Positions 561 through 45,245 of a DNA stretch of 64,000 nt are shown here, in pieces. Under the pieces are notes generated by a model. It did not search any database, was not told the DNA's origin, and worked only from the letters and a program-made list of their open reading frames with translations. The translations under genes were made by a program, and so were the position numbers. The stretch lies in NCBI GenBank assembly GCA_040905525.1, contig JBBDRJ010000018.1, forward strand, positions 88,769 through 152,768, read 5' to 3'. Positions within the stretch are counted from its first letter, which is position 1. Every line of letters starts with the position of its first letter. The stretch is from Actinomycetota bacterium (GTDB lineage Bacteria > Actinomycetota > JAICYB01).

Positions 561-1696
561 GGCGGTGATGGCGGTGGAGTGAGATGTAGACCACCGACGT
601 CTTCCGGATGAGTCTCTTCCCCGCCGTCGAGCAAAAGACGCAGAAGCCGGAATCCTTCGTGCGCCGCATCGATCTCGCGCGAGATCGTGTCGGGCACAGC
701 CGGTTCGGCATCCAGGCTGAGGCGGATCGTTTCCGTCAATGCCTCAGGGCCGAGTCGCTTCGACACGCATGGCTGACGAAGACGTCGTGACAATCCGATG
801 AGCTTGGCTTCGTGGCCGTACGAGACGAATGGCGTCCCGGCGGTCGATGCGGCGATGAGCGCGTGATAACGGAACGACACAACGAGCCGGCAGGCCGCGA
901 AGGTGTCCCGGGCCTGCTTCAGGTCGCGCGGCGGCGGAAGGAGCTCGACCCCCAATGAAGCCTGCAGCTCTCTAGCCAGATGCGTGTCACCGGGCGAAGT
1001 TCGACCGTTCTGCCACGGCTGAAGCTTGATCTCGACGCCCTCGGATACAAGAGGGCGAAGGGCGGCAGTGATGCGAGCCGTTAGGGTTCCGTCGTCCGCC
1101 AGGTGACTGAGGGCGACGATCACCTCGTCGCGGCGCTGCGCAGAGATCCGATGCGGTGGCTGAAACCTCGGCTCTCCTTCTAGATCGAAGAGCGCCCATG
1201 CAGGATCGGCTCCGATACGGAAGGGCGGACGAACGCCGGCCTCGGCGAGTAGAACCGCGGACTCTTCGTCTCGCAGTACCAGCAGACCCGAGCGGTGCGC
1301 GAAGGCGCGCGCGAGGATGTCCGCGTATGCGTTGTCGAGCTTCCCGGCGCCTACTCCGAGCATCGCAACCGACTTGCCCATCGCGCGAGCACCGGCAGCC
1401 AGGACGAGGCCCTTGCGCAGCAGATCGTTCGCCGATCGCCCCGCTGAGGGATGAAGCGTTTTGAAGATCGTGCCGCCGGCGAACACGACGGCATCGGCGC
1501 GGACCGCCTGCAAAGCTACGTCTTTGGGGTCGCTCGACGAAACCGCGTCGCAACCGCGGCAGGCGCGGGTGTCGGCGGGGTCGCTCGACGTCGCGACCGC
1601 ACGCCACCCATCGAGGTGGCGCAGGAACGCTTCGAGGAGCGCTTCGTCGCCGGGGTTATGCTGCCCGAACGCGCCTACGAGCAAGACTGTCGGCAT
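557..1696 (-). CDS. Polysaccharide pyruvyl transferase family protein
   Basis: ORF 557..1789; from internal Met MPTVLLVGAFGQHNPGDEALLEAF...VVFAGGTIF...FRYHALIAA resembles CsaB/WcaK-type pyruvyl transferases; start set at 1696. Confidence 0.65.
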   Translation of the reverse strand: MPTVLLVGAFGQHNPGDEALLEAFLRHLDGWRAVATSSDPADTRACRGCDAVSSSDPKDVALQAVRADAVVFAGGTIFKTLHPSAGRSANDLLRKGLVLAAGARAMGKSVAMLGVGAGKLDNAYADILARAFAHRSGLLVLRDEESAVLLAEAGVRPPFRIGADPAWALFDLEGEPRFQPPHRISAQRRDEVIVALSHLADDGTLTARITAALRPLVSEGVEIKLQPWQNGRTSPGDTHLARELQASLGVELLPPPRDLKQARDTFAACRLVVSFRYHALIAASTAGTPFVSYGHEAKLIGLSRRLRQPCVSKRLGPEALTETIRLSLDAEPAVPDTISREIDAAHEGFRLLRLLLDGGEETHPEDVGGLHLTPPPSPP

Positions 1697-2858
1697 GCAG
1701 CACCTCCTCGTAAAGATCGAGGTGTGCCCGGGCTGACTCCGCCCACGTTCTTCCGGCACGCAGCGTTTCGCTACTGTGGCGGATGGCATCCAGTCGAACC
1801 GGATCGTTCAGGATGTCGTTCAGCGCGCGCGCTAACCCGTCGGGATCCAGCGGCACGCGCAGATCTTTCGGTGCTTCTATGCAGTCGCCCACAGCGGGCG
1901 ACACCACAACGGGAGTTTCGAAGCCCAGGGCTAGCGCGAGCGCGCCGCTCGATGAGAATGGATCCGGATACGGGAACAGCGCGATGTCAGCGGCGGAGAA
2001 CCAGCGCGCAACATCTCTCTCGGAGACGTAGCCCGTGAACCGGGCAACGTCGCCGAACTGCGAAATTAGCTCCGCCAAGTAGCCGCGCTTGGGGTTTCTG
2101 CGGGCAAGGCGCGGATGCTCACCCCCGGCCACGACGAGCCGGAAAGCGCCCGATCGGCGGGACGCTTCCAGGGCCGCTTCGAGGCCCTTGTACGGCGCGA
2201 CGAAACCGAAGCACAACACCGTCGGAATCGAGCCGAGGCCCAATTCACTTCGGACCGTGCTTCGGTTGACGCGCTCGAGTAGTTCGATCCCATGCGGGAT
2301 CACGGCCGCATCGGGAAAATTCCGGGTGAACGACGCCTCATGGACGACCACCGCGTCGGCGAAACGACGTATCGCACCCTGCACCGAAGCGATGCCGGTG
2401 CGGGCCAGGAAGCTCGGCGATCGCACGCGGTGCATGCGGACGAAATTGCGGTCGACTGCACCCGGGTCGACAACCTGGTGCGGTGTTACGACAACGCGAC
2501 GCCCGGCGCGGCGAAGGGCGGCGAGCGCCGGGACCAGGCAGGCGAGCGAAAGGGCTCCGCCGTAGAGAAAGAGCTCGAACTGGACGTGTACTACTGGCGC
2601 GTTCGTGGACCTGGCTGCCGCGACCGCGTCGATGAGCGCGGTTGGGCCCCGACGGAAGCACCGCCGCACCGTCACCGACCCGTCGCTGGACGTTGCCGGC
2701 TCGTCCGGCTCATGAGCACAGACCACATCCACATTTGCGCCGGCGCCGGCCAGCGCGTGCGCCAGGTTCGCCGTGTAGGACGCCACACCGCTGAGTCCGG
2801 CGTGGCGCTTACCAGCTGGTGGGTACAGCGACACGATCGCGATGTCGGTATTCGGCAT
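1656..2858 (-). CDS. Glycosyltransferase family 4 (GT1/GT4 fold)
   Basis: 400 aa ORF; N-terminal MPNTDIAIVSLYPP...GVASYTANLAHALAGAGANVDVV and C-terminal GT4-like region (FPYPDPFSSSGALALALGFETPVV). Confidence 0.8.
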   Translation of the reverse strand: MPNTDIAIVSLYPPAGKRHAGLSGVASYTANLAHALAGAGANVDVVCAHEPDEPATSSDGSVTVRRCFRRGPTALIDAVAAARSTNAPVVHVQFELFLYGGALSLACLVPALAALRRAGRRVVVTPHQVVDPGAVDRNFVRMHRVRSPSFLARTGIASVQGAIRRFADAVVVHEASFTRNFPDAAVIPHGIELLERVNRSTVRSELGLGSIPTVLCFGFVAPYKGLEAALEASRRSGAFRLVVAGGEHPRLARRNPKRGYLAELISQFGDVARFTGYVSERDVARWFSAADIALFPYPDPFSSSGALALALGFETPVVVSPAVGDCIEAPKDLRVPLDPDGLARALNDILNDPVRLDAIRHSSETLRAGRTWAESARAHLDLYEEVLHADSLARRRVRAA

Positions 2859-6098: not shown

Positions 6099-7133
6099 TC
6101 AGTTGCTGAGCTGGTCGAACGTGCACTCCTCCGGCTTCTTGTCGTCACGCCAGCGGACGAATCCGGCCGCGTGCCGGAACCGCTGGCCGGATTGCACGTA
6201 GTCGTAGGTGACCTCGCACACCAGCGTCGGTTCGATCGATGTCCACTCGTATTCCTTACCGCCCGTCCAGCGGCTCTGAGCTCCGGGCCCCCACTCTTCC
6301 GGCGCCCCGAACCCGGCGCCGCTTACGTTGTGCAGCGGCTCCAGGATCTTGACCAGTTCTTTGCGCTCCTTAGCGCTGAACGACGCGGTGTGGCCGATGT
6401 AGCGCAGGTTCCCATCGTCGTACAACCCCAGTAGCAGCGATCCGACGCCACCGTGCTTGTGCGGGCGGTACCCGCCCACGACGCAGTCGGCCGTGCGCTT
6501 GTGTTTGATCTTGATCATCACCCGGTCGCCGGGCGAATAAGGAAGTGTCAGCTTCTTCGCGACGATACCGTCGCATTTCACCTTCTCCAGCTCGACGAAC
6601 CAGTCCTGCGCGACGTCGGCATCGTCCGTGCAGGGTGTGAGATGGAACGTCGGACCGGGCAACGTCGCCGGTGCGCCGGGTTCCTTGGGACGCTTCTTAC
6701 CGAAGACTCCCGTCAGGACGCGCAGCCGTTCGGCGAGCGGTTCGTCACACAGGTTCTTGTCGGTGCCGAGGATGTCGAACACGACGAAGCTGGCCGGGGT
6801 CTCGCCGGCCAGCTTGTTCACGCGCGACGCGGCCGGGTGAAGCCGCGCCTGCAAAGCGTCGAAGTCGAGCCCGGAATCCGACGGCAGGATGATCTCGCCA
6901 TCGACGACGCATGGATCGGGCAATGCGTCACGCAACAGCTCCTCGACCTCGGGGAAGTACCGATTAAGGGGACGGCCGTTACGACTGTCGATCTGTACGA
7001 GATCGCCATCACGGAAGACGATCGCTCGGAAGCCGTCCCACTTCGGTTCGTAGATCCACTCGTCGCCGCGTGGGACCTCGTCTTTGCCCTTGGCGAGCAT
7101 CGGCTTCACGGGAGGCTTAACGGGTAGTGACAT
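6099..7133 (-). CDS. ligC: ATP-dependent DNA ligase (LigC-like, ligase domain only)
   Basis: 344 aa; adenylation motif I KWDGFR (KxDG), overall ATP-dependent ligase core with no appended polymerase or nuclease domain. Confidence 0.75.
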   Translation of the reverse strand: MSLPVKPPVKPMLAKGKDEVPRGDEWIYEPKWDGFRAIVFRDGDLVQIDSRNGRPLNRYFPEVEELLRDALPDPCVVDGEIILPSDSGLDFDALQARLHPAASRVNKLAGETPASFVVFDILGTDKNLCDEPLAERLRVLTGVFGKKRPKEPGAPATLPGPTFHLTPCTDDADVAQDWFVELEKVKCDGIVAKKLTLPYSPGDRVMIKIKHKRTADCVVGGYRPHKHGGVGSLLLGLYDDGNLRYIGHTASFSAKERKELVKILEPLHNVSGAGFGAPEEWGPGAQSRWTGGKEYEWTSIEPTLVCEVTYDYVQSGQRFRHAAGFVRWRDDKKPEECTFDQLSN

Positions 7134-7167
7134 ACTCCGATGGTCTCAGGTCTTCGGGGGAGGCGTC

Positions 7168-8160
7168 ATGCGATTCGTTGAAGCGGGCGGAGCAAGACTC
7201 TCGGTCATCGGGCTCGGCTGCTGGCAATTCGGTTCATGGGACTGGGGGTACGGTAACGACTACGCCCAGACGACCTCGATCGAAATAACGAACCGAGCAC
7301 TTGATCTCGGCGTGAACCTTGTGGACACCGCCGAGCTCTACGGATTCGGGCGGTCCGAGAAGATCGTGGGCCGGGCCATCGCCGAGCGGCGGCACGAGGC
7401 GTTCCTGGCGACGAAGCTCCTTCCAGTGATGCCCGTTGCGCCGATCGTCGAGCAGCGGGCGAAGGCGAGCATCGCCCGCATGCACGTGACGAACCTCGAT
7501 CTCTATCAGATCCATTGGCCGAATCCTGTCGTCGGTGACGGCACGGCGATGACCGGGATGCGCCGGCTGATCGACGCCGGCCTGGTTCGTCACGCAGGAG
7601 TTAGCAACTATCCGTTGTCGCGGTGGATGTCTGCGGATCGGGCTTTGGGCATGCCGGTACTGTCGAACCAGGTCCGTATGAACCTCGTCGATCGGCGTCC
7701 GCTCGTCGACCTTGTCCCCTTCGCGCGCAGCGAGGGACGCATCGTGATCGCCTACAGTCCGTTGGCGCAGGGGCTTCTCGGCGGGCGCTACGACCCCGAC
7801 AACGTGCCGACCGGAGTGGCGCGTCGCTCCAACCCGCTGTTCCTGCCCGAGAACCTCGAGCGAGCCACAACGCTGATAGGTGCGCTTCGTGACATAGCGG
7901 CGAGTCATCAATGCACGCCGGCTCAGATCGCGCTGGCCTGGGTGGTGCGCCATTCCAACGTCGTCGCGATCCCGGGTGCCTCGAGCGTTGAGCAGTTGGA
8001 GGCCAACGTCGCTGCGGCCGAGATCGAGCTCACTGAATCGGAAGCCCGCCAGCTCGAGGAAGCCGCCGACGCCTTCGAGCCCATCAGAGGAGCGGCCGCT
8101 GTTCGAGAGATGGCCGAGTCGGTCGTGTCCGGCCTTCGCGGCCGATTGGGACTTCGCTAG
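7168..8160 (+). CDS. Aldo/keto reductase
   Basis: ORF 7084..8160; start moved to ATG 7168 (RBS GGGGGAGG); MRFVEAGGARLSVIGLGCWQFG... typical AKR N-terminus. Confidence 0.8.
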   Translation: MRFVEAGGARLSVIGLGCWQFGSWDWGYGNDYAQTTSIEITNRALDLGVNLVDTAELYGFGRSEKIVGRAIAERRHEAFLATKLLPVMPVAPIVEQRAKASIARMHVTNLDLYQIHWPNPVVGDGTAMTGMRRLIDAGLVRHAGVSNYPLSRWMSADRALGMPVLSNQVRMNLVDRRPLVDLVPFARSEGRIVIAYSPLAQGLLGGRYDPDNVPTGVARRSNPLFLPENLERATTLIGALRDIAASHQCTPAQIALAWVVRHSNVVAIPGASSVEQLEANVAAAEIELTESEARQLEEAADAFEPIRGAAAVREMAESVVSGLRGRLGLR

Positions 8161-8210
8161 GCAGGAACGTTACAGTAGGACTGTCATATAGCTGGCTCTG
8201 AGGAGCTCCG

Positions 8211-9383
8211 ATGACCACGCCTACGCAGACCTTCGACTGGACCGATCAGGCCTTTCTGTCCGACCCCTATCCGCATTACCGCGCGCTGCGCGAGCGCGAC
8301 CCTGTGCACTACAACGCGTCGCGTGGGACGTGGGCGCTAACGCGCTACAACGACATAGTCGCCGTCTTGCGCGATCACGATCGGTTCTCGGCCGAACGCG
8401 GGCCGGGCGCCGAAGACCCGGACTTCCCCCGCTCGATGCTCGGCTCCGATCCGCCCCATCACACTCGGCTGCGGAACCTCGTGAACAAAGCGTTCACCGC
8501 ACGAACCGTCGAGCGGCTTCGGGTGCGCATCCAAGAGCTCGTCGACGCCAATCTGGACCGAGTCGCCGAGCGTGGAGAGATGGAGGTCGTCAACGACTTC
8601 GCTTACCCCCTGCCGATCACGGTCATCGCCGAGATGCTCGGGGTGCCGGCGGACGACCGCGACTTCTTCCGCGAAGCGTCGTCCAAGATCGCGGTCGCTC
8701 TCGGCCCGATCGAAGACATGCAGATCGCCATGCGCGCCCTGGAGGGACGCAACCAGCTCATCGCATATTTCAACGAGCTCATCCCCAAGCGATCCGGCGA
8801 CGACGGCGACGATCTGATCACGGCATTGCTCCGGGCAGAGGAAGCCGGTGACTTCCTCAGTCACGGCGAGCTCCTGGCCATGCTGCTCCTCTTGCTCGTG
8901 GCCGGGCACGAGACGACTGTGAACCTCATCGGCAACGGATTGATCGCTCTCCTGCGAAATCCGGATCAGCTCGAACGTCTGCGAAGTGAAGAAGGGATCG
9001 AGCGGAAAGCAACGGAGGAGTTGCTGCGCTACGACTCTCCCGTCCAGTTCACCGGACGGGTCGTCCTGGAAGATGTCGAGATCGGCGGCAAGACCATCCG
9101 CGCCGGTCAGGGGCTGACGACGCTTCTCGCTTCGGCAAACCGCGATCCGGAGCTCTTCGAGGATCCGGACATGCTCGACCTGACCCGCGATCCGTGCCCG
9201 CACCTGTCCTTCTCGGCCGGGATCCACTTCTGCCTGGGTGCCCAGCTGGCGCGCCTGGAGGGCCAGATCGCCCTGTCGACGATCGTTCGCAGATTCCCCG
9301 ACATCGCGATCGCGACCGACAAGCTCGAGTGGCGGCCGGCGCCGATCCTGCGCGGTGTGGTGGCGTTGCCGGTTACGTTCTAG
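8211..9383 (+). CDS. Cytochrome P450
   Basis: 390 aa; heme-binding loop FSAGIHFCLGAQLA, AGHETT, ELLRYDSPV. Confidence 0.9.
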   Translation: MTTPTQTFDWTDQAFLSDPYPHYRALRERDPVHYNASRGTWALTRYNDIVAVLRDHDRFSAERGPGAEDPDFPRSMLGSDPPHHTRLRNLVNKAFTARTVERLRVRIQELVDANLDRVAERGEMEVVNDFAYPLPITVIAEMLGVPADDRDFFREASSKIAVALGPIEDMQIAMRALEGRNQLIAYFNELIPKRSGDDGDDLITALLRAEEAGDFLSHGELLAMLLLLLVAGHETTVNLIGNGLIALLRNPDQLERLRSEEGIERKATEELLRYDSPVQFTGRVVLEDVEIGGKTIRAGQGLTTLLASANRDPELFEDPDMLDLTRDPCPHLSFSAGIHFCLGAQLARLEGQIALSTIVRRFPDIAIATDKLEWRPAPILRGVVALPVTF

Positions 9384-9581
9384 CGCGTGACTGAAGACTG
9401 ATCACAAGGAGTCGCTACGCTCCATCCTGAGAGTCGGCCCTGCAACGTAATATTCGTTCTGCTCGACAGCCTCAATCGCCATGTCCTGGACGCCTACGGG
9501 GACGGCAGCGAGTTCGACACGCCCAACCTCGACCGCTTCGCGAAGGGCGCGATCAAGTTCGAGAACCACTACTCCGGCGCG

Positions 9582-10982
9582 TTGCCCTGCATGCCTGCGC
9601 GGCACGACCTGCTATGTGGTGCATGGGACTTTCCATGGAAGCCGTGGGGCTCGATAGAGATCTGGGAGGAGCCGCTCACCGAGGCGCTTCGACGCGAAGG
9701 TGTGTGCACGAAGCTTGTCAGTGATCACCCGCACCTGTTCGAGAGCGGCGGCGAGAACTATCACGTGGGCTTCTCCGCGTGGGACTACCAGCGTGGGCAC
9801 GAAGGCGACCCCTGGCGCACGCGCCCCGACGCGTCGTGGCTCGGCGCGCCGTCGTTCGGTCGCGGCTGGCTGCCCTACGACACCTCCCGCGGCTGGTTCC
9901 GAAGCGAGGAGAACTTCCCCGGCCCCCGGACGATGACCGCGGCCGCGCGCTGGCTCGACGAAGAGGCGCAGGCGAGCTCGGGCCGGGACTCGATGGACGG
10001 CCTGCCCGAACATGCCGACCGTTACGAGCGCTTCCTGCTCTTCGTCGACGAGTTCGACCCGCATGAGCCTTTCGACACACCCGAGCCGTACGCCTCGATG
10101 TACGACGAGGCTTGGGAAGGACCGCACCTCATCTGGCCGCCGTACATACGCGGCGCGCAGGAGCGGGGCGTGCTCACGTCCGAACAGGCACGCCAGGTGC
10201 GCGCCCAGTACGGCGGCAAGCTCACGATGATCGACGCATGGTTCGGCCGGATGCTCGACGCAATCGACAACAACGAGTACTGGGACGACACGGCGGTAAT
10301 CGTGACGACAGACCACGGGCACTACCTGGGCGAGAAGGACGCGTGGGGGAAGCCGCCCATCCCGATCTACGAGACGATGGGACACATCCCCTTGCTCGTC
10401 CGCTGGCCGGGAGCCGAGCCGCGAACCATCAACGCCCTGACGACATCAGTGGACATCGCAGCCACCATCGTCGACGTGTTCGGAGCGTCCTTCCGTCACC
10501 CGACGCACGGTCGTTCTCTGCTCCCGTTGATCACGGGGGAGTCGACGTCGGTTCGTGACTGGATGCTCTCGGGGATCTGGGGCCGCGAGATCCACCTGCT
10601 CTGGGAAGGAAAGAAGTACGCGCGAGCACCGGTGGGCGCCAACGTGCCGCAGAGCCTGTGGTCCAACCGCTGGTCGACTATGCCCGTTTGGCGTTTCGCG
10701 GATCTGAAGCTGCCGGTCCCCGACGACCGCGCGATCCTCGACCACATGCCGGGGTCGACGATCCCCGTTATCCGCCAACCCTTCCGGGAAGGGGACATGC
10801 TCCCCTTCTGGGCGTGGGGTCCCTTCGACGGCAACGAGCTCTACGACATCTCAAACGATCCGGGCGAGGACGCCGATCTCGCCGGTACACCGCTCGAGAA
10901 GGTGGCGGCCGACCTGCTCCACGACGCTCTGAAAGAGATCGAAGCTCCGAGCGATCACTATGTTCGGCTCGGCCTAGACTGA
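9582..10982 (+). CDS. Sulfatase family protein (formylglycine-dependent type)
   Basis: 466 aa from TTG; CMPAR (C-x-P-x-R) at the very N-terminus, TTDHGHYLGEKDAWGKP; conserved N-terminal region continues in frame upstream to about 9444 with no canonical start (see findings). Confidence 0.7.
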   Translation: MPCMPARHDLLCGAWDFPWKPWGSIEIWEEPLTEALRREGVCTKLVSDHPHLFESGGENYHVGFSAWDYQRGHEGDPWRTRPDASWLGAPSFGRGWLPYDTSRGWFRSEENFPGPRTMTAAARWLDEEAQASSGRDSMDGLPEHADRYERFLLFVDEFDPHEPFDTPEPYASMYDEAWEGPHLIWPPYIRGAQERGVLTSEQARQVRAQYGGKLTMIDAWFGRMLDAIDNNEYWDDTAVIVTTDHGHYLGEKDAWGKPPIPIYETMGHIPLLVRWPGAEPRTINALTTSVDIAATIVDVFGASFRHPTHGRSLLPLITGESTSVRDWMLSGIWGREIHLLWEGKKYARAPVGANVPQSLWSNRWSTMPVWRFADLKLPVPDDRAILDHMPGSTIPVIRQPFREGDMLPFWAWGPFDGNELYDISNDPGEDADLAGTPLEKVAADLLHDALKEIEAPSDHYVRLGLD

Positions 10983-10986
10983 CTCC

Positions 10987-11661
10987 GTGACAGACAAGGA
11001 CATGCTCGACATCACGTTCTACATGGCTTGCCTGAAGCTGGTCGGACGTCGCTGCGTGGTCATCGGCGGCGGTCCGGTTGGCCTCGAGAAGGTCGACGGT
11101 CTGCTGGAGTGCGACGCCGACGTCACCCTGATCGCGCGGGAAGCGGTGGATGCCCTGAAGGAGCTCGCGAACGAGGGCTCCATCAAATGGGAGCAACGCT
11201 CGTACGAGGGCCCGGCCGACCTCGAGGGCGCCTTCATCGTGATCGCCGCCACCGAGAAGACGGATCTCAACACTCAGGTGTTCAACGATGCCGAGCATCG
11301 GGCAATGCTCTGCAACGTCGTCGATGTACCGCCGTTGTGCAACTTCATCCTTCCGGCCATCACGCGCACCGGACCCATCGCTATCGCGATCTCTACGGCC
11401 GGTGCCTCGCCCGCGCTGGCCAAGCGGATGAAGCGCGAGATCGCCGAGACCTACGGCGCGCCGTACGCGCGTCTGGCCGAGATCCTCAACGCTTATCGCG
11501 AGTGGGCGAAGTCCACGCTTCCGACCTACCAGGACCGCAAGGAGTTCTTCGAGTCGATCGTGAACGGTACGCCCGACCCCGTCGAGCTCCTGCGCGCGGA
11601 CGATGAGCAAGCCGTTCACGATCTGATCGCGTCACGGCAGAGGACGGCCGTCCCCGCCTGA
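10987..11661 (+). CDS. Precorrin-2 dehydrogenase / sirohydrochlorin ferrochelatase family (CysG N-terminal-like)
   Basis: 224 aa; Rossmann motif VVIGGGPVGLEKVDGLL, overall siroheme synthase N-domain-like. Confidence 0.65.
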   Translation: MTDKDMLDITFYMACLKLVGRRCVVIGGGPVGLEKVDGLLECDADVTLIAREAVDALKELANEGSIKWEQRSYEGPADLEGAFIVIAATEKTDLNTQVFNDAEHRAMLCNVVDVPPLCNFILPAITRTGPIAIAISTAGASPALAKRMKREIAETYGAPYARLAEILNAYREWAKSTLPTYQDRKEFFESIVNGTPDPVELLRADDEQAVHDLIASRQRTAVPA

Positions 11662-11667
11662 TCTCAT

Positions 11668-12585
11668 TTGACGGCGATCGAGATTGTCGGCCTTCGTAAA
11701 ACGTTTCGCCGCCGCTTAGGCCGTGCCAACCTCGCCGTCGACGGGCTCTATCTCCGGGTGCCGGCCGGCGGCGTCTACGGATTCCTCGGCCCCAACGGAT
11801 CGGGCAAGACCACGACCATCCGGTGTCTGCTCGGCCTGGTCCGTCCCGACGAAGGTGAGTGCCGGATGCTCGGCGCGAACACGCGCGGAGGGCTTGCCGA
11901 AGTAGTGGACCGAGTGGGTTCGATCGTCGAGACGCCGTCGTTCTTCGGCGGATTCTCGGGCCGGACGAATCTGGAACTGCTGGCCGGAGCGCGCGGGTTC
12001 TCGCGAGCTCGGATCGACGAAGCGCTCGAGCGCGTCGGGTTGGCCGATCGCGCCGGCGATCGCTTCCGCACCTACTCCCTGGGGATGAAGCAACGTCTCG
12101 GTTTGGCCGCCGTCCTTATCAAGGATCCGGAAGTGCTCGTGCTGGACGAACCGGCCAACGGGCTGGACCCAGCGGGCCTCAAGGAGGTCCGCGACCTGTT
12201 GCGATCGCTCGCCGACGACGGACGAACGGTTTTCCTGTCCAGCCATCTGCTCGGCGAGGTTCAGGCCATCTGCGATTCGGTGGCGATCCTCTCGCGCGGA
12301 CGCTGCATCGCGCAGGGACCGGTGGACGAGGTGCTGGCCGTCCGCGGAGGAAATGCGTTCGTCGTTCGAGCCGCCAAGATCAGAGAGGCGAAGCGCGCAC
12401 TCGACCAGGCCGGGTTGATGGCGACGTTCCGTGGGGACAAGAGCCTGCGCGTGATCGCGCAGTCGCAAGGCCCCGCCAGGATCACGCGAGCCCTAGCCGA
12501 GGCCGGCATCTACCTCACGGAGCTCCGGCCCGAGGAGATCAGCCTCGAAGCCGTCTTTCTAGAGCTCACGGGCGAGGAATCATGA
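11668..12585 (+). CDS. ABC transporter ATP-binding protein
   Basis: 305 aa; Walker A GPNGSGKTT, signature YSLGMKQRL, Walker B VLVLDEP; TTG start. Confidence 0.85.
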   Translation: MTAIEIVGLRKTFRRRLGRANLAVDGLYLRVPAGGVYGFLGPNGSGKTTTIRCLLGLVRPDEGECRMLGANTRGGLAEVVDRVGSIVETPSFFGGFSGRTNLELLAGARGFSRARIDEALERVGLADRAGDRFRTYSLGMKQRLGLAAVLIKDPEVLVLDEPANGLDPAGLKEVRDLLRSLADDGRTVFLSSHLLGEVQAICDSVAILSRGRCIAQGPVDEVLAVRGGNAFVVRAAKIREAKRALDQAGLMATFRGDKSLRVIAQSQGPARITRALAEAGIYLTELRPEEISLEAVFLELTGEES

Positions 12586-19372: not shown

Positions 19373-19402
19373 ATGTCGAGCGTAGCGACTAAACGTGAGG
19401 TA

Positions 19403-42898: not shown

Positions 42899-43503
42899 TG
42901 GAACTCGTCCTCGTCCGACACGCTTTGCCGGTCCGCATAATCAACGCGGAGGGTGCCGCCGATCCTCCACTGACGGAGCTCGGACGTCGGCAAGCCCAGG
43001 CCGTCGCCACGTGGTTGGGGGCCGAGCGGTTCGATGCCTTGTACGCGAGCCCGTTGGTGCGCGCGCGAGAGACGGCCGAACCGCTCTCCTCATCCCTCGG
43101 TCTCGATGTTCAGATCGAGGACGGCATCGCGGAGTACGACCGCCGATCGGAGACCTATATCCCGATCGAAGAGGTGAAGAGCAGCGACGACCCTGAGATC
43201 CAGGCGCACTGGCGTGCGCTGGCTGAGGATCGGCTCGAGGATCTGATCGAAGACGCGCACACCTTCAGGCCGCGCGTGGTCGACGCCGTCACCCGCATCA
43301 TCGCCAAGCATGCCGGCGAGCGTGTGCTCGCCGTGTGTCACGGCGGCGTTATCAACGTGGCGCTTGCGGAGGTCATCGGACTACAGCGAAGCTTGTGGTT
43401 CGAACCGGCGTACGCATCCATCCATCGTGTGGTTGCCTCGCGCGCCGGCATCCGTAGCATTGCGAGCATCAACGAAACAGGTCACTTGCGCGGTCTCGAC
43501 TAA
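42898..43503 (+). CDS. Histidine phosphatase family protein (phosphoglycerate mutase-like)
   Basis: ORF 42841..43503; start at ATG 42898 (MELVLVRHALP = RHG-type motif), overlapping the upstream stop. Confidence 0.75.
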   Translation: MELVLVRHALPVRIINAEGAADPPLTELGRRQAQAVATWLGAERFDALYASPLVRARETAEPLSSSLGLDVQIEDGIAEYDRRSETYIPIEEVKSSDDPEIQAHWRALAEDRLEDLIEDAHTFRPRVVDAVTRIIAKHAGERVLAVCHGGVINVALAEVIGLQRSLWFEPAYASIHRVVASRAGIRSIASINETGHLRGLD

Positions 43504-45113
43504 GCCCGTTCGAGCACCTTCACGAATCCGGCGGAGCCGTCCACCTCGACGGTGTCGCCGTCGTGCAGCACCGAACACGCTCCCGTCGCCGCAACCACGG
43601 CCGGGATCCCGAGCTCACGTGCGACGATGACGGCGTGCGACAACTCGCCGCCGACTTCGACGACGACGGCGGCAGCCGGGATGAACATCGGCGTCCACCC
43701 AGGGTCGGTTATCGGAGCCACGAGGACCTCGCCGGGCGATGGAGGCGTGCTGCGGTATGGATCGAGAACGACACGTACTCGTCCTTTCGCCGTCCCCGGG
43801 CTCCCGGCGACGCCGCGAAGCTCGTCGACCGGTCCGGCGTGGGCGGCTACGCCCACATGCAACCAGTCCTCGATCGGCGGAACCTCGCCGAACACGACGA
43901 GCGGTGCCGCCAGCTTGGAGAGCTCTTCGAAGCGTTTCGTTCTTGACGCCAGGTCGTGCGGCAGCTCGCCGTCGAGTGCTGCGGTGTAGAGCTCGGCAAA
44001 GGTCAGCATGAAGACCTGTCCGGGGTCGGTCAGGACCTTCCTATCGAGGAGCCTTTTGGTCAGCTCGTGCGCGTCCAGCCTGGCTTCGTTCAGCAGGACG
44101 ATGCAGTTCGTCTTCGTTCGTTCTCGCCCTGGGATGTAGAACTTCGCCGCTTCGAGCCAGAAGCCGAGCTCGGGCCAATCCTTGCCGAGGGCTCCTTCGA
44201 CCTCAACGAGCGCCGAGGTGCGGATGTCCTCGATCGGACGCTTGGGCTCTGCCCCCTTGGCCTTGTCGATCAGCGATCCAACGACGTCCGGAACGAGTTC
44301 CCACGACGGCGTTGCGAGCTCCCATTCGTTCGCGCCACGGAAGCCGTGATCGATGATGAAGTCGTTGAAGCGGATGTCGAAGTCGTGGCCCTCGAGCCTG
44401 GCCAGTTCGGCGATCTCCTTGGCCGGGCCGGCCGAGTCGACGTCCCCCAGGCCGCTGACGATGCGTCGCGCCAGGTCGTCTCCCCGTTCACCCAGAACCT
44501 GGCGCAGGCCTTGCTGAAGGCCGCCGAAAGCCACGCTGGAAAGACTGGACGTGAGGATGTGGTCGTAGAACAACGTTTCGACGCGATCGGCCATGTTCTC
44601 CATGTTGGTGAGTAAAGCGATGTCGGTTTGTCCCGACCGGCGGTCGCGCGAGATCCGGCGGAACGCAGCAGCCATCGCACGGTCGGCTTCCACGGCAGCC
44701 ATGGGCGGGTTCTTGAGCAACGAGGAGACCCCGAGCTCACAACGCTTCCGTCGCTCTTCGTAGCCGGGCTCAGCCGGTGGTTCGTGGGACGGAAGCTTCA
44801 CGCCGATGGCGAAGAATTGGTGGTCGATCTCCTCCGGTGATGTTCCGGGGGACAGATCCGCGGCGCGCCTGATGAGCGACAGGTTCAGGTATGCGTACGA
44901 GCCGAAGAACCCGAGGATGCGGAACTCGTGGTCGGACGGGTCGATGACGGGGAGGTCGCGGGTCCACAGGCGTCGCCAGCCGCGCTCTAGACGGGGGGTG
45001 AACAGCGTCCGTGTTAGCGGAGTGACGGCCGTCGGGAAGACCTCGCCGATGTTGCCCCTCGTGTACAGCGGGAACTGCTGGTCGGGCTCGGTGTCGAAAG
45101 GCCAGAGCGCCAT
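43500..45113 (-). CDS. PEP-utilising enzyme mobile (swivel) domain protein
   Basis: 537 aa; C-terminal phospho-histidine swivel domain GSPGTAKGRVRVV...VLVAPITDPGWTPMF...GGELSHAVIVARELGIPAVV; no recognisable ATP-grasp N-domain. Confidence 0.65.
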   Translation of the reverse strand: MALWPFDTEPDQQFPLYTRGNIGEVFPTAVTPLTRTLFTPRLERGWRRLWTRDLPVIDPSDHEFRILGFFGSYAYLNLSLIRRAADLSPGTSPEEIDHQFFAIGVKLPSHEPPAEPGYEERRKRCELGVSSLLKNPPMAAVEADRAMAAAFRRISRDRRSGQTDIALLTNMENMADRVETLFYDHILTSSLSSVAFGGLQQGLRQVLGERGDDLARRIVSGLGDVDSAGPAKEIAELARLEGHDFDIRFNDFIIDHGFRGANEWELATPSWELVPDVVGSLIDKAKGAEPKRPIEDIRTSALVEVEGALGKDWPELGFWLEAAKFYIPGRERTKTNCIVLLNEARLDAHELTKRLLDRKVLTDPGQVFMLTFAELYTAALDGELPHDLASRTKRFEELSKLAAPLVVFGEVPPIEDWLHVGVAAHAGPVDELRGVAGSPGTAKGRVRVVLDPYRSTPPSPGEVLVAPITDPGWTPMFIPAAAVVVEVGGELSHAVIVARELGIPAVVAATGACSVLHDGDTVEVDGSAGFVKVLERA

Positions 45114-45245
45114 GGTCGCTCCTTTTCGTATGCCCTAGGTTTACCGCGTGGGTGCCGCCTGCGACAACGGCGGTTGGTTGACGGCAGGCCAAAGTGGTGC
45201 TGGTATCAGCGGTCCAGAGCTGTGCGTTGAAAGGGTGGAATCCAA

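Follow-up and report, generated by a model that had tools for sequence, protein, structure and literature searches.

We report that a formylglycine sulfatase gene on the forward strand of a 64-kb stretch of DNA from an uncultured actinomycete (64,000 nucleotides, hereafter the window) encodes its conserved N-terminus upstream of every canonical start codon. Comparison with the syntenic relatives indicates that the start codon is not lost: the conserved GTG start is in place and is interrupted by an early nonsense codon at codon 5. Our favoured reading, to which we assign a probability of roughly 0.45, is that the sulfatase may still be made at a low level by Shine-Dalgarno (SD)-directed initiation or (re)initiation at an ACG codon at position 9417. 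Whether this would be a selected natural gene that has ACG as its only productive start, used by way of the SD and of termination-reinitiation after a relic of four codons, is in our judgement rather doubtful.

The sulfatase frame (plus strand) is open from 9402, as the initial annotation of this DNA had it, up to the terminal TGA at 10980-10982, and TGA 9399-9401 is the stop codon that bounds it on the 5' side. The earliest in-frame ATG, GTG or TTG after TGA 9399 is TTG 9582, and the next ATG, 9591, lies within the formylglycine motif C-M-P-A-R at 9588-9602 (first canonical starts and motif together, 9582..9602, plus strand); the position that had been given for the first start, TTG 9582 just before CMPAR, was confirmed. 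We likewise agree with the claim that a conserved N-terminal region, including the metal-binding Asp (GAC 9465), is encoded 5' of any canonical start. Between 9390 and 9480 no ATG, GTG or TTG was found in any of the frames, which rules out a frameshift route from another frame. Runs of 60 codons without a canonical start make up 4.5% of the in-frame coding windows in the 64 kb, and the start-free stretch is noteworthy for its position over the conserved N-terminus, not for its length.

The gene body (9444..10982, plus strand) is intact, without frameshift or internal stop, and ends with TGA 10980-10982. When translated from 9402 it matches the Pfam family Sulfatase (PF00884) at 104.8 bits (cutoff 25) over residues 15-361, and the C/S-x-P-x-R motif is present as C-M-P-A-R, the relatives having C-[MIVL]-P-A-R-H-D. 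The first beta-strand, N-V-I-F-V-L-L-D-S-L-N (9444..9476, plus strand), carries the metal-binding Asp (GAC 9465-9467), includes the codons ATA 9450 and CTG 9459, and aligns to NVLFIIIDQL of PDB 4upk. A block N[VA][IV]x[VI]LLDSLNR is present in 119/119 full-length homologs, where it is preceded by 3-35 more residues, and its LLDSL part together with the strand-1 Asp is invariant in all 119. The alignment to the homologs (500-520 aa, 98% coverage) is full-length and the closest ones are 517-522 aa long. Homology also begins well before CMPAR: approximately 120 full-length relatives and the solved sulfatases align from Asn 9444, and the alignments with sulfatases and phosphonate monoester hydrolases of the PDB set in at query residue 11-15, the latter enzymes being the best PDB matches.

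These matches place the protein clearly within the fold family of the formylglycine sulfatases, albeit without a curated equivalog; none of the NCBIfam equivalogs was reached (PehA, 122 bits with a cutoff of 900; choline sulfatase, 112 with a cutoff of 433). These NCBIfam matches are partial and below threshold, and neither they nor the closest structures, those of phosphonate monoester hydrolases, assign a substrate. With the type I (formylglycine) sulfatases and phosphonate monoester hydrolases of the alkaline-phosphatase superfamily (PF00884; PDB 4upk, 2vqr, 6fny) it has in common the C-x-P-x-R motif, the strand-1 Asp and the TTDHGH block, whereas in the gene studied here the N-terminal part is encoded 5' of every canonical start and its translation is uncertain. 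As predicted from the reading frame, the strand-1 Asp would be part of the translated protein only if initiation takes place at ACG or ATA, or by way of read-through.

Directly upstream lies a cytochrome P450 gene (8211..9383, plus strand; Pfam p450, E=2e-33), which shares its frame with the sulfatase and ends with TAG 9381-9383. The same P450 gene directly precedes the sulfatase also in five relatives, namely L002, L083, L085 and L164 (79-80% amino-acid identity) and L165 (87%). In 6/6 syntenic loci, the window included, a GTG is located 2-6 nt past the P450 stop, and in 5/5 relatives this GTG opens the sulfatase. The sulfatase of these relatives is translationally coupled to the upstream P450 in the classic manner, and the P450 of the window is the corresponding upstream partner. 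In the window the GTG (9387) follows 3 nt behind TAG 9381-9383 and shares the frame of the sulfatase but is stopped at codon 5; what is left of the ancestral start is a mini-ORF of four codons (9387..9401, plus strand) that reads GTG ACT GAA GAC and is followed by the in-frame TGA 9399-9401. The suggestion in the initial annotation that the start had been lost and that the gene is a pseudogene has consequently to be divided: there is no loss, GTG 9387 being present and in frame, and the pseudogene option survives provided that inactivation was very recent. The genome uses TGA as an ordinary stop, with 21/54 putative genes ending in it, among them the sulfatase itself. Neither a terminator nor a promoter-like site was found between the P450 and the sulfatase, and no Rfam element, including SECIS and riboswitches, matched the junction at E<=1.

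The TGA sits inside a fast-evolving N-terminal linker. Downstream of it, the lineage-specific part SQGVATLHPESRPC (9402..9443, plus strand) belongs to a linker whose long form is restricted to the window and its closest relative, L165. In the junction alignment the window is approximately 38-42 nt longer than L002, L083, L085 and L164, and the distance from the GTG to the conserved Pro-Arg-Asn is 4-6 codons in these four relatives, 18 in the window and 21 in L165. The linker of L165 is open and in phase from its GTG; since it is also long and in frame, the long linker predates the stop, and for the same reason we rejected a foreign insertion that brought in both the TGA and the SD. The similarity between the linkers of the window and L165 is not significant, with 305/2000 shuffles scoring as well, and we do not claim that a TTA codon in L165 corresponds to the TGA of the window. 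Because the linkers are too diverged for an alignment codon by codon, the sense codon ancestral to the TGA is not assigned. For the start region the best identity in the metagenome scan was 79% among the matches listed, and the search with the N-terminal protein sequence gave 87% as best identity (L165), with no closer relative that covers the start region.

Between the TGA and the conserved strand the sequence contains a perfect SD hexamer, AAGGAG (9406..9411, plus strand), and 5 nt after it ACG 9417..9419 (plus strand), which we propose as the (re)initiation codon of a 521-aa product. This ACG is the sole in-frame near-cognate codon between TGA 9399 and Asn 9444. SD-led starts with spacers of 5-8 nt are common in the window, and one bona fide gene on the minus strand (43500..45134) has an identical layout, aaggag-cgacc-ATG. 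A 6-mer SD followed 4-9 nt on by an in-frame near-cognate codon occurs in 0.18-0.35% of random frame-anchored 42-nt stretches of the window, and in 2% with 5-mer SDs under the same null, both of these being post hoc figures. GTG 9387, AAGGAG 9406-9411 and the in-frame ACG 9417 had been overlooked in the initial annotation. Two other explanations of sequence features at this site were tried and discarded. That an ATG was lost at the position of ACG 9417 is contradicted by the relatives, none of which has an ATG there, and by the orthologs starting at the post-P450 GTG; and a 13-nt exact match, AGTCGCTACGCTC, at 19378-19390 (minus strand), considered as a copied initiation region or regulatory motif, is put down to chance, 36% of random 63-nt segments matching as well.

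The candidate starts differ in the product they would give. Initiation at GTG 9387 with read-through of the TGA, which is without SD and coupled to the P450 stop, would yield 531 aa with the metal-binding Asp at residue 27; ACG 9417, with AAGGAG and a 5-nt spacer, 521 aa with the Asp at residue 17; ATA 9450, 510 aa with the Asp at residue 6; and CTG 9459, 507 aa with the Asp at residue 3, the last two having no SD within 16 nt. In the homologs the position of this Asp has its mode at 16-20 and is residue 9 or later in 117/119, the two homologs with an earlier Asp being one partial record and one probably truncated call. Ahead of strand 1, Pro is present in 110/119 homologs and Asn in 86/119; the ACG product retains both, whereas the ATA and CTG products lose them, so that the conserved Pro-x-Asn is included with an ACG start and dropped with an ATA start. 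The N-terminal peptides in play are MLHPESRPCNVIFVLLDSLNR and MFVLLDSLNR, the latter corresponding to the ATA 9450 start, and the N-terminus of the ACG-start product would read MLHPESRPC. As in a genuine non-canonical start, the near-cognate codon is in frame, suitably spaced from an SD and 5' of the conserved region; conservation of such a start is lacking, given that all syntenic relatives use the post-P450 GTG.

With (re)initiation at ACG 9417, ribosomes, whether they bind directly or have just left the P450 and the mini-ORF, would engage AAGGAG 9406-9411 and then initiate at the near-cognate ACG five nt downstream of the SD. The expected yield would be approximately 1% of the efficiency of AUG or less, and the product a 521-aa enzyme with a family-typical N-terminus containing Pro-x-Asn and the Asp; translation that starts at GTG 9387 and, rarely, reads through the TGA could constitute a minor second route to full-length protein. 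We favour this reading because ACG 9417 is the sole in-frame near-cognate codon, has an appropriate SD spacing with the same layout as 43500..45134 (minus strand) and gives a family-typical product. It is further favoured by the GTG being ancestral and the TGA an ordinary stop, by the sequence being real and the gene body constrained, and by the junction lacking any terminator or promoter-like site, together with the capacity of ACG to initiate in Escherichia coli. In that bacterium AUA and CUG initiate at approximately 1-2% of AUG, and ACG is among the remaining codons at 0.1-1%, with an N-terminal Met as determined by mass spectrometry (bioRxiv 10.1101/063800).

Several observations speak against ACG initiation. 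In E. coli ACG initiates weakly, and our literature search for natural bacterial ACG starts returned none of relevance beyond the 64-codon study (bioRxiv 10.1101/063800). The SD and the ACG are partly within a predicted hairpin, GGAGU/GCUCC at 9408-9423 (-6.5 kcal/mol, no more stable than that of shuffled sequences), which takes in 4/6 bases of the SD as well as the G of the ACG; it would be expected to melt when a ribosome terminates at TGA 9399. A C-to-T change at 9418 would create a perfect ATG and yet is absent, which points to a very recent lesion or to a lack of selection for expression, and the SD itself could have arisen by chance from the Gln-Gly-Val codons that the old linker contained. 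Finally, the truncated sulfatase of L165, the closest relative with the start region, hints that the gene is dispensable in the clade.

The initial annotation had listed non-canonical initiation, a pseudogene and a sequence error as explanations, and we find this set to be the realistic one. If an error in sequencing or assembly had created the TGA or removed the start, the true genome would carry a normal, open gene starting with GTG; the source being a metagenome-assembled genome (MAG), such errors are a concern, and we nevertheless consider this most improbable. The window matches at 100% identity 7.4 kb of a 45-kb contig (L001) that Logan assembled from SRR27977663, and 7.5 kb of a 313-kb contig (L082) of the GenBank MAG GCA_040879475.1 ("Actinomycetota bacterium"); an assembly error in the start region is unlikely because identical DNA, more than 7 kb of it, is found both in this GenBank MAG and in the assembly of the SRA run, the latter built with a different assembler. 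The protein cluster comprises two NCBI accessions, which come from two contigs, together with two contigs from Logan, and there is no homopolymer run at the start site. On this one DNA three gene calls have been made on the plus strand, at ATG 9591 by Logan (463 aa; P0001), at TTG 9582 by mechanical ORF calling (466 aa) and at ATA 9450 by the NCBI pipeline PGAP (510 aa, MFVLLDS; P0121), and none of the three has a plausible enzyme N-terminus. The NCBI records of the locus, MEX0874454.1 and MEX2539473.1 ("sulfatase", 510 aa), share with our analysis the same DNA and a CDS placed 5' of the first canonical start, and differ in beginning at ATA 9450 and in mentioning neither the interruption of the GTG start nor the SD and the ACG. 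A start at ATA 9450 or at CTG 9459, as the initial annotation had also proposed, would use codons that belong to the table-11 start set and are somewhat above ACG in E. coli, and ATA is within an unusually AT-rich patch (9444-9458) that could leave the site unstructured. ACG is outside the table-11 set and was unavailable to PGAP, and the ATA call is therefore not independent evidence; the GenBank start is a by-product of the permitted start-codon list and not of biology. Lacking an SD within 16 nt, placing the Asp at residue 6 or 3 and losing the Pro and the Asn ahead of strand 1, both starts fit the family poorly and are highly unlikely. Main-route translation from GTG 9387, with the TGA read through or recoded to give the 531-aa product, has on its side that it would use the conserved, coupled start codon, which is in frame, and that near-cognate read-through of UGA occurs at a low level in bacteria. 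It is very unlikely nonetheless: the TGA is a normal stop in the genome and is not conserved, the frame of L165 being open there; UGA followed by U terminates comparatively efficiently in E. coli; and the region shows no SECIS-like or other Rfam element, with downstream folds no more stable than those of shuffled sequence. Programmed recoding would involve a conserved TGA with a downstream element, and the L165 linker is without a stop.

The strongest competitor of ACG (re)initiation is a very young pseudogene, in which the TGA at codon 5 ended productive translation, the cell makes no functional sulfatase, AAGGAG and ACG are there by accident, and the ORF would still be intact because there has been too little time for further decay. 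We consider this quite possible, if on balance somewhat improbable. The stop is early and in frame relative to all orthologs, no canonical start is available upstream of the catalytic N-terminus, and three gene callers place the start differently; the weakness of ACG as initiator in E. coli, the empty literature search for natural ACG starts, the single transition at 9418 that has not happened and the truncated sulfatase of L165 point in the same direction. In L165 homology to the sulfatase ends at approximately residue 189 and is followed by a methyltransferase-like ORF on the opposite strand, so the sulfatase may be dispensable in some clade members, or the L165 contig may be chimeric. Against a pseudogene stands the gene body, which is under strong purifying selection. 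Compared with the sister-strain fragments L166 and L167 (93% identical; 1-kb contigs from JGI samples 3300037440 and 3300037743 that cover the C-terminal 277 codons only), the window has dN/dS values of 0.046 and 0.053 at a dS of approximately 0.3. On the window branch, with L164 as outgroup and clearly derived changes counted, there are 14 synonymous and 2 non-synonymous changes, the neutral expectation over the whole branch being approximately 44 non-synonymous ones. No second lesion, i.e. frameshift or stop, was found in the remaining 512 codons (1.5 kb), and a perfect SD with an in-frame near-cognate codon is expected in just 0.2-2% of such stretches. Of the features by which pseudogenes are recognized, a disabling lesion is thus present (TGA 9399 at codon 5), and relaxed selection and extra lesions are absent. 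Given 2 non-synonymous changes as compared to approximately 44, inactivation, if any, is confined to the last few percent of the window branch, and the dN/dS values are compatible with such a very recent event.

Classic rescue of early nonsense mutants is represented by the restarts in lacI amber mutants and by termination-reinitiation coupling in operons. As in the lacI restarts, the stop is here a few codons past the true start and a downstream in-frame site with an SD could serve ribosomes that have just terminated; as in operon coupling, the gene belongs to a tightly coupled operon, with a gap of 3 nt after the P450 stop. The locus differs from these cases in having ACG and not AUG, GUG or UUG as the sole suitably placed restart codon, and in being known from its sequence. 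It also resembles infC and pcnB, both with AUU, and the near-cognate starts of Hecht et al. (bioRxiv 10.1101/063800), in that a near-cognate codon is positioned behind a strong SD and low efficiency is expected. Starts of the infC type are conserved across species and regulatory, whereas the present configuration is confined to its lineage, GTG being the start codon of the orthologs; moreover, unlike accepted non-canonical starts, ACG is not an accepted table-11 start.

Overall the locus is a modest curiosity, and the event falls among known kinds, i.e. early nonsense mutations for which reinitiation is possible, and non-canonical starts of the sort annotated by NCBI. It misses both the conservation of the start that characterizes genuine non-canonical genes and the relaxed selection or second lesion of established pseudogenes. 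If ACG initiation is not real, what we describe is ordinary, a freshly inactivated gene in a metagenome-assembled genome. If it is real, it would be a rare natural case of near-cognate rescue of an early nonsense codon in a tightly coupled operon, and the sulfatase of this uncultured actinomycete would represent an early nonsense mutation rescued in evolution and caught in the act.

The protein encoded at 9402-10979 belongs to a widespread subfamily (>3,700 homologs), and its top NCBIfam and PDB matches are phosphonate monoester hydrolase/PehA-type enzymes rather than characterised sulfatases, with all NCBIfam matches falling far under the equivalog cut-offs. Within the 5' coding region of this gene, positions 9444-9458 constitute an AT-rich patch (AACGTAATATTCGTT) that includes the rare codons GTA, ATA and GTT, while the relatives have GTC GTC TTC GTC at the same place; the difference could be due either to drift or to selection that keeps the start of the coding region unstructured. 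The N-terminal linker also carries a 13-nt sequence, AGTCGCTACGCTC (9410-9422), which is repeated exactly in the 5' region of another gene (19378-19390, minus strand). A match of at least 13 nt was found for 36% of random 63-nt segments and the repeat is therefore within chance expectation.

In L165 (1067-1869), the nearest relative whose sequence includes the start region, the homology to the sulfatase ends at approximately residue 189 and is followed by a SAM-methyltransferase-like ORF on the opposite strand (973..1728). Either the sulfatase gene is truncated in L165 or this 1.9-kb contig is chimeric.

With respect to stop codon usage, a crude 54-gene model of the whole window gave 25 TAG, 21 TGA and 8 TAA codons, i.e. 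TAG is the commonest, which is unusual for an actinomycete-like genome with 65% G+C; the TAG excess may in part be an artefact of the rough gene model.

The region 7084-12585 encodes an aldo-keto reductase, the cytochrome P450, the sulfatase, a sirohaem-synthase-like protein and an ABC ATPase, and this order is kept in the window, the syntenic locus L164, and L001 and L082, which are identical to the window over 7.4-7.5 kb. The distance between the P450 stop codon and the GTG is 2-6 nt in all six syntenic loci, and in the window four nucleotides separate the sulfatase TGA from the GTG (10987) of the next gene downstream. The block from the aldo-keto reductase to the ABC ATPase looks translationally coupled throughout, and its link to sirohaem hints at a role in sulfur scavenging.
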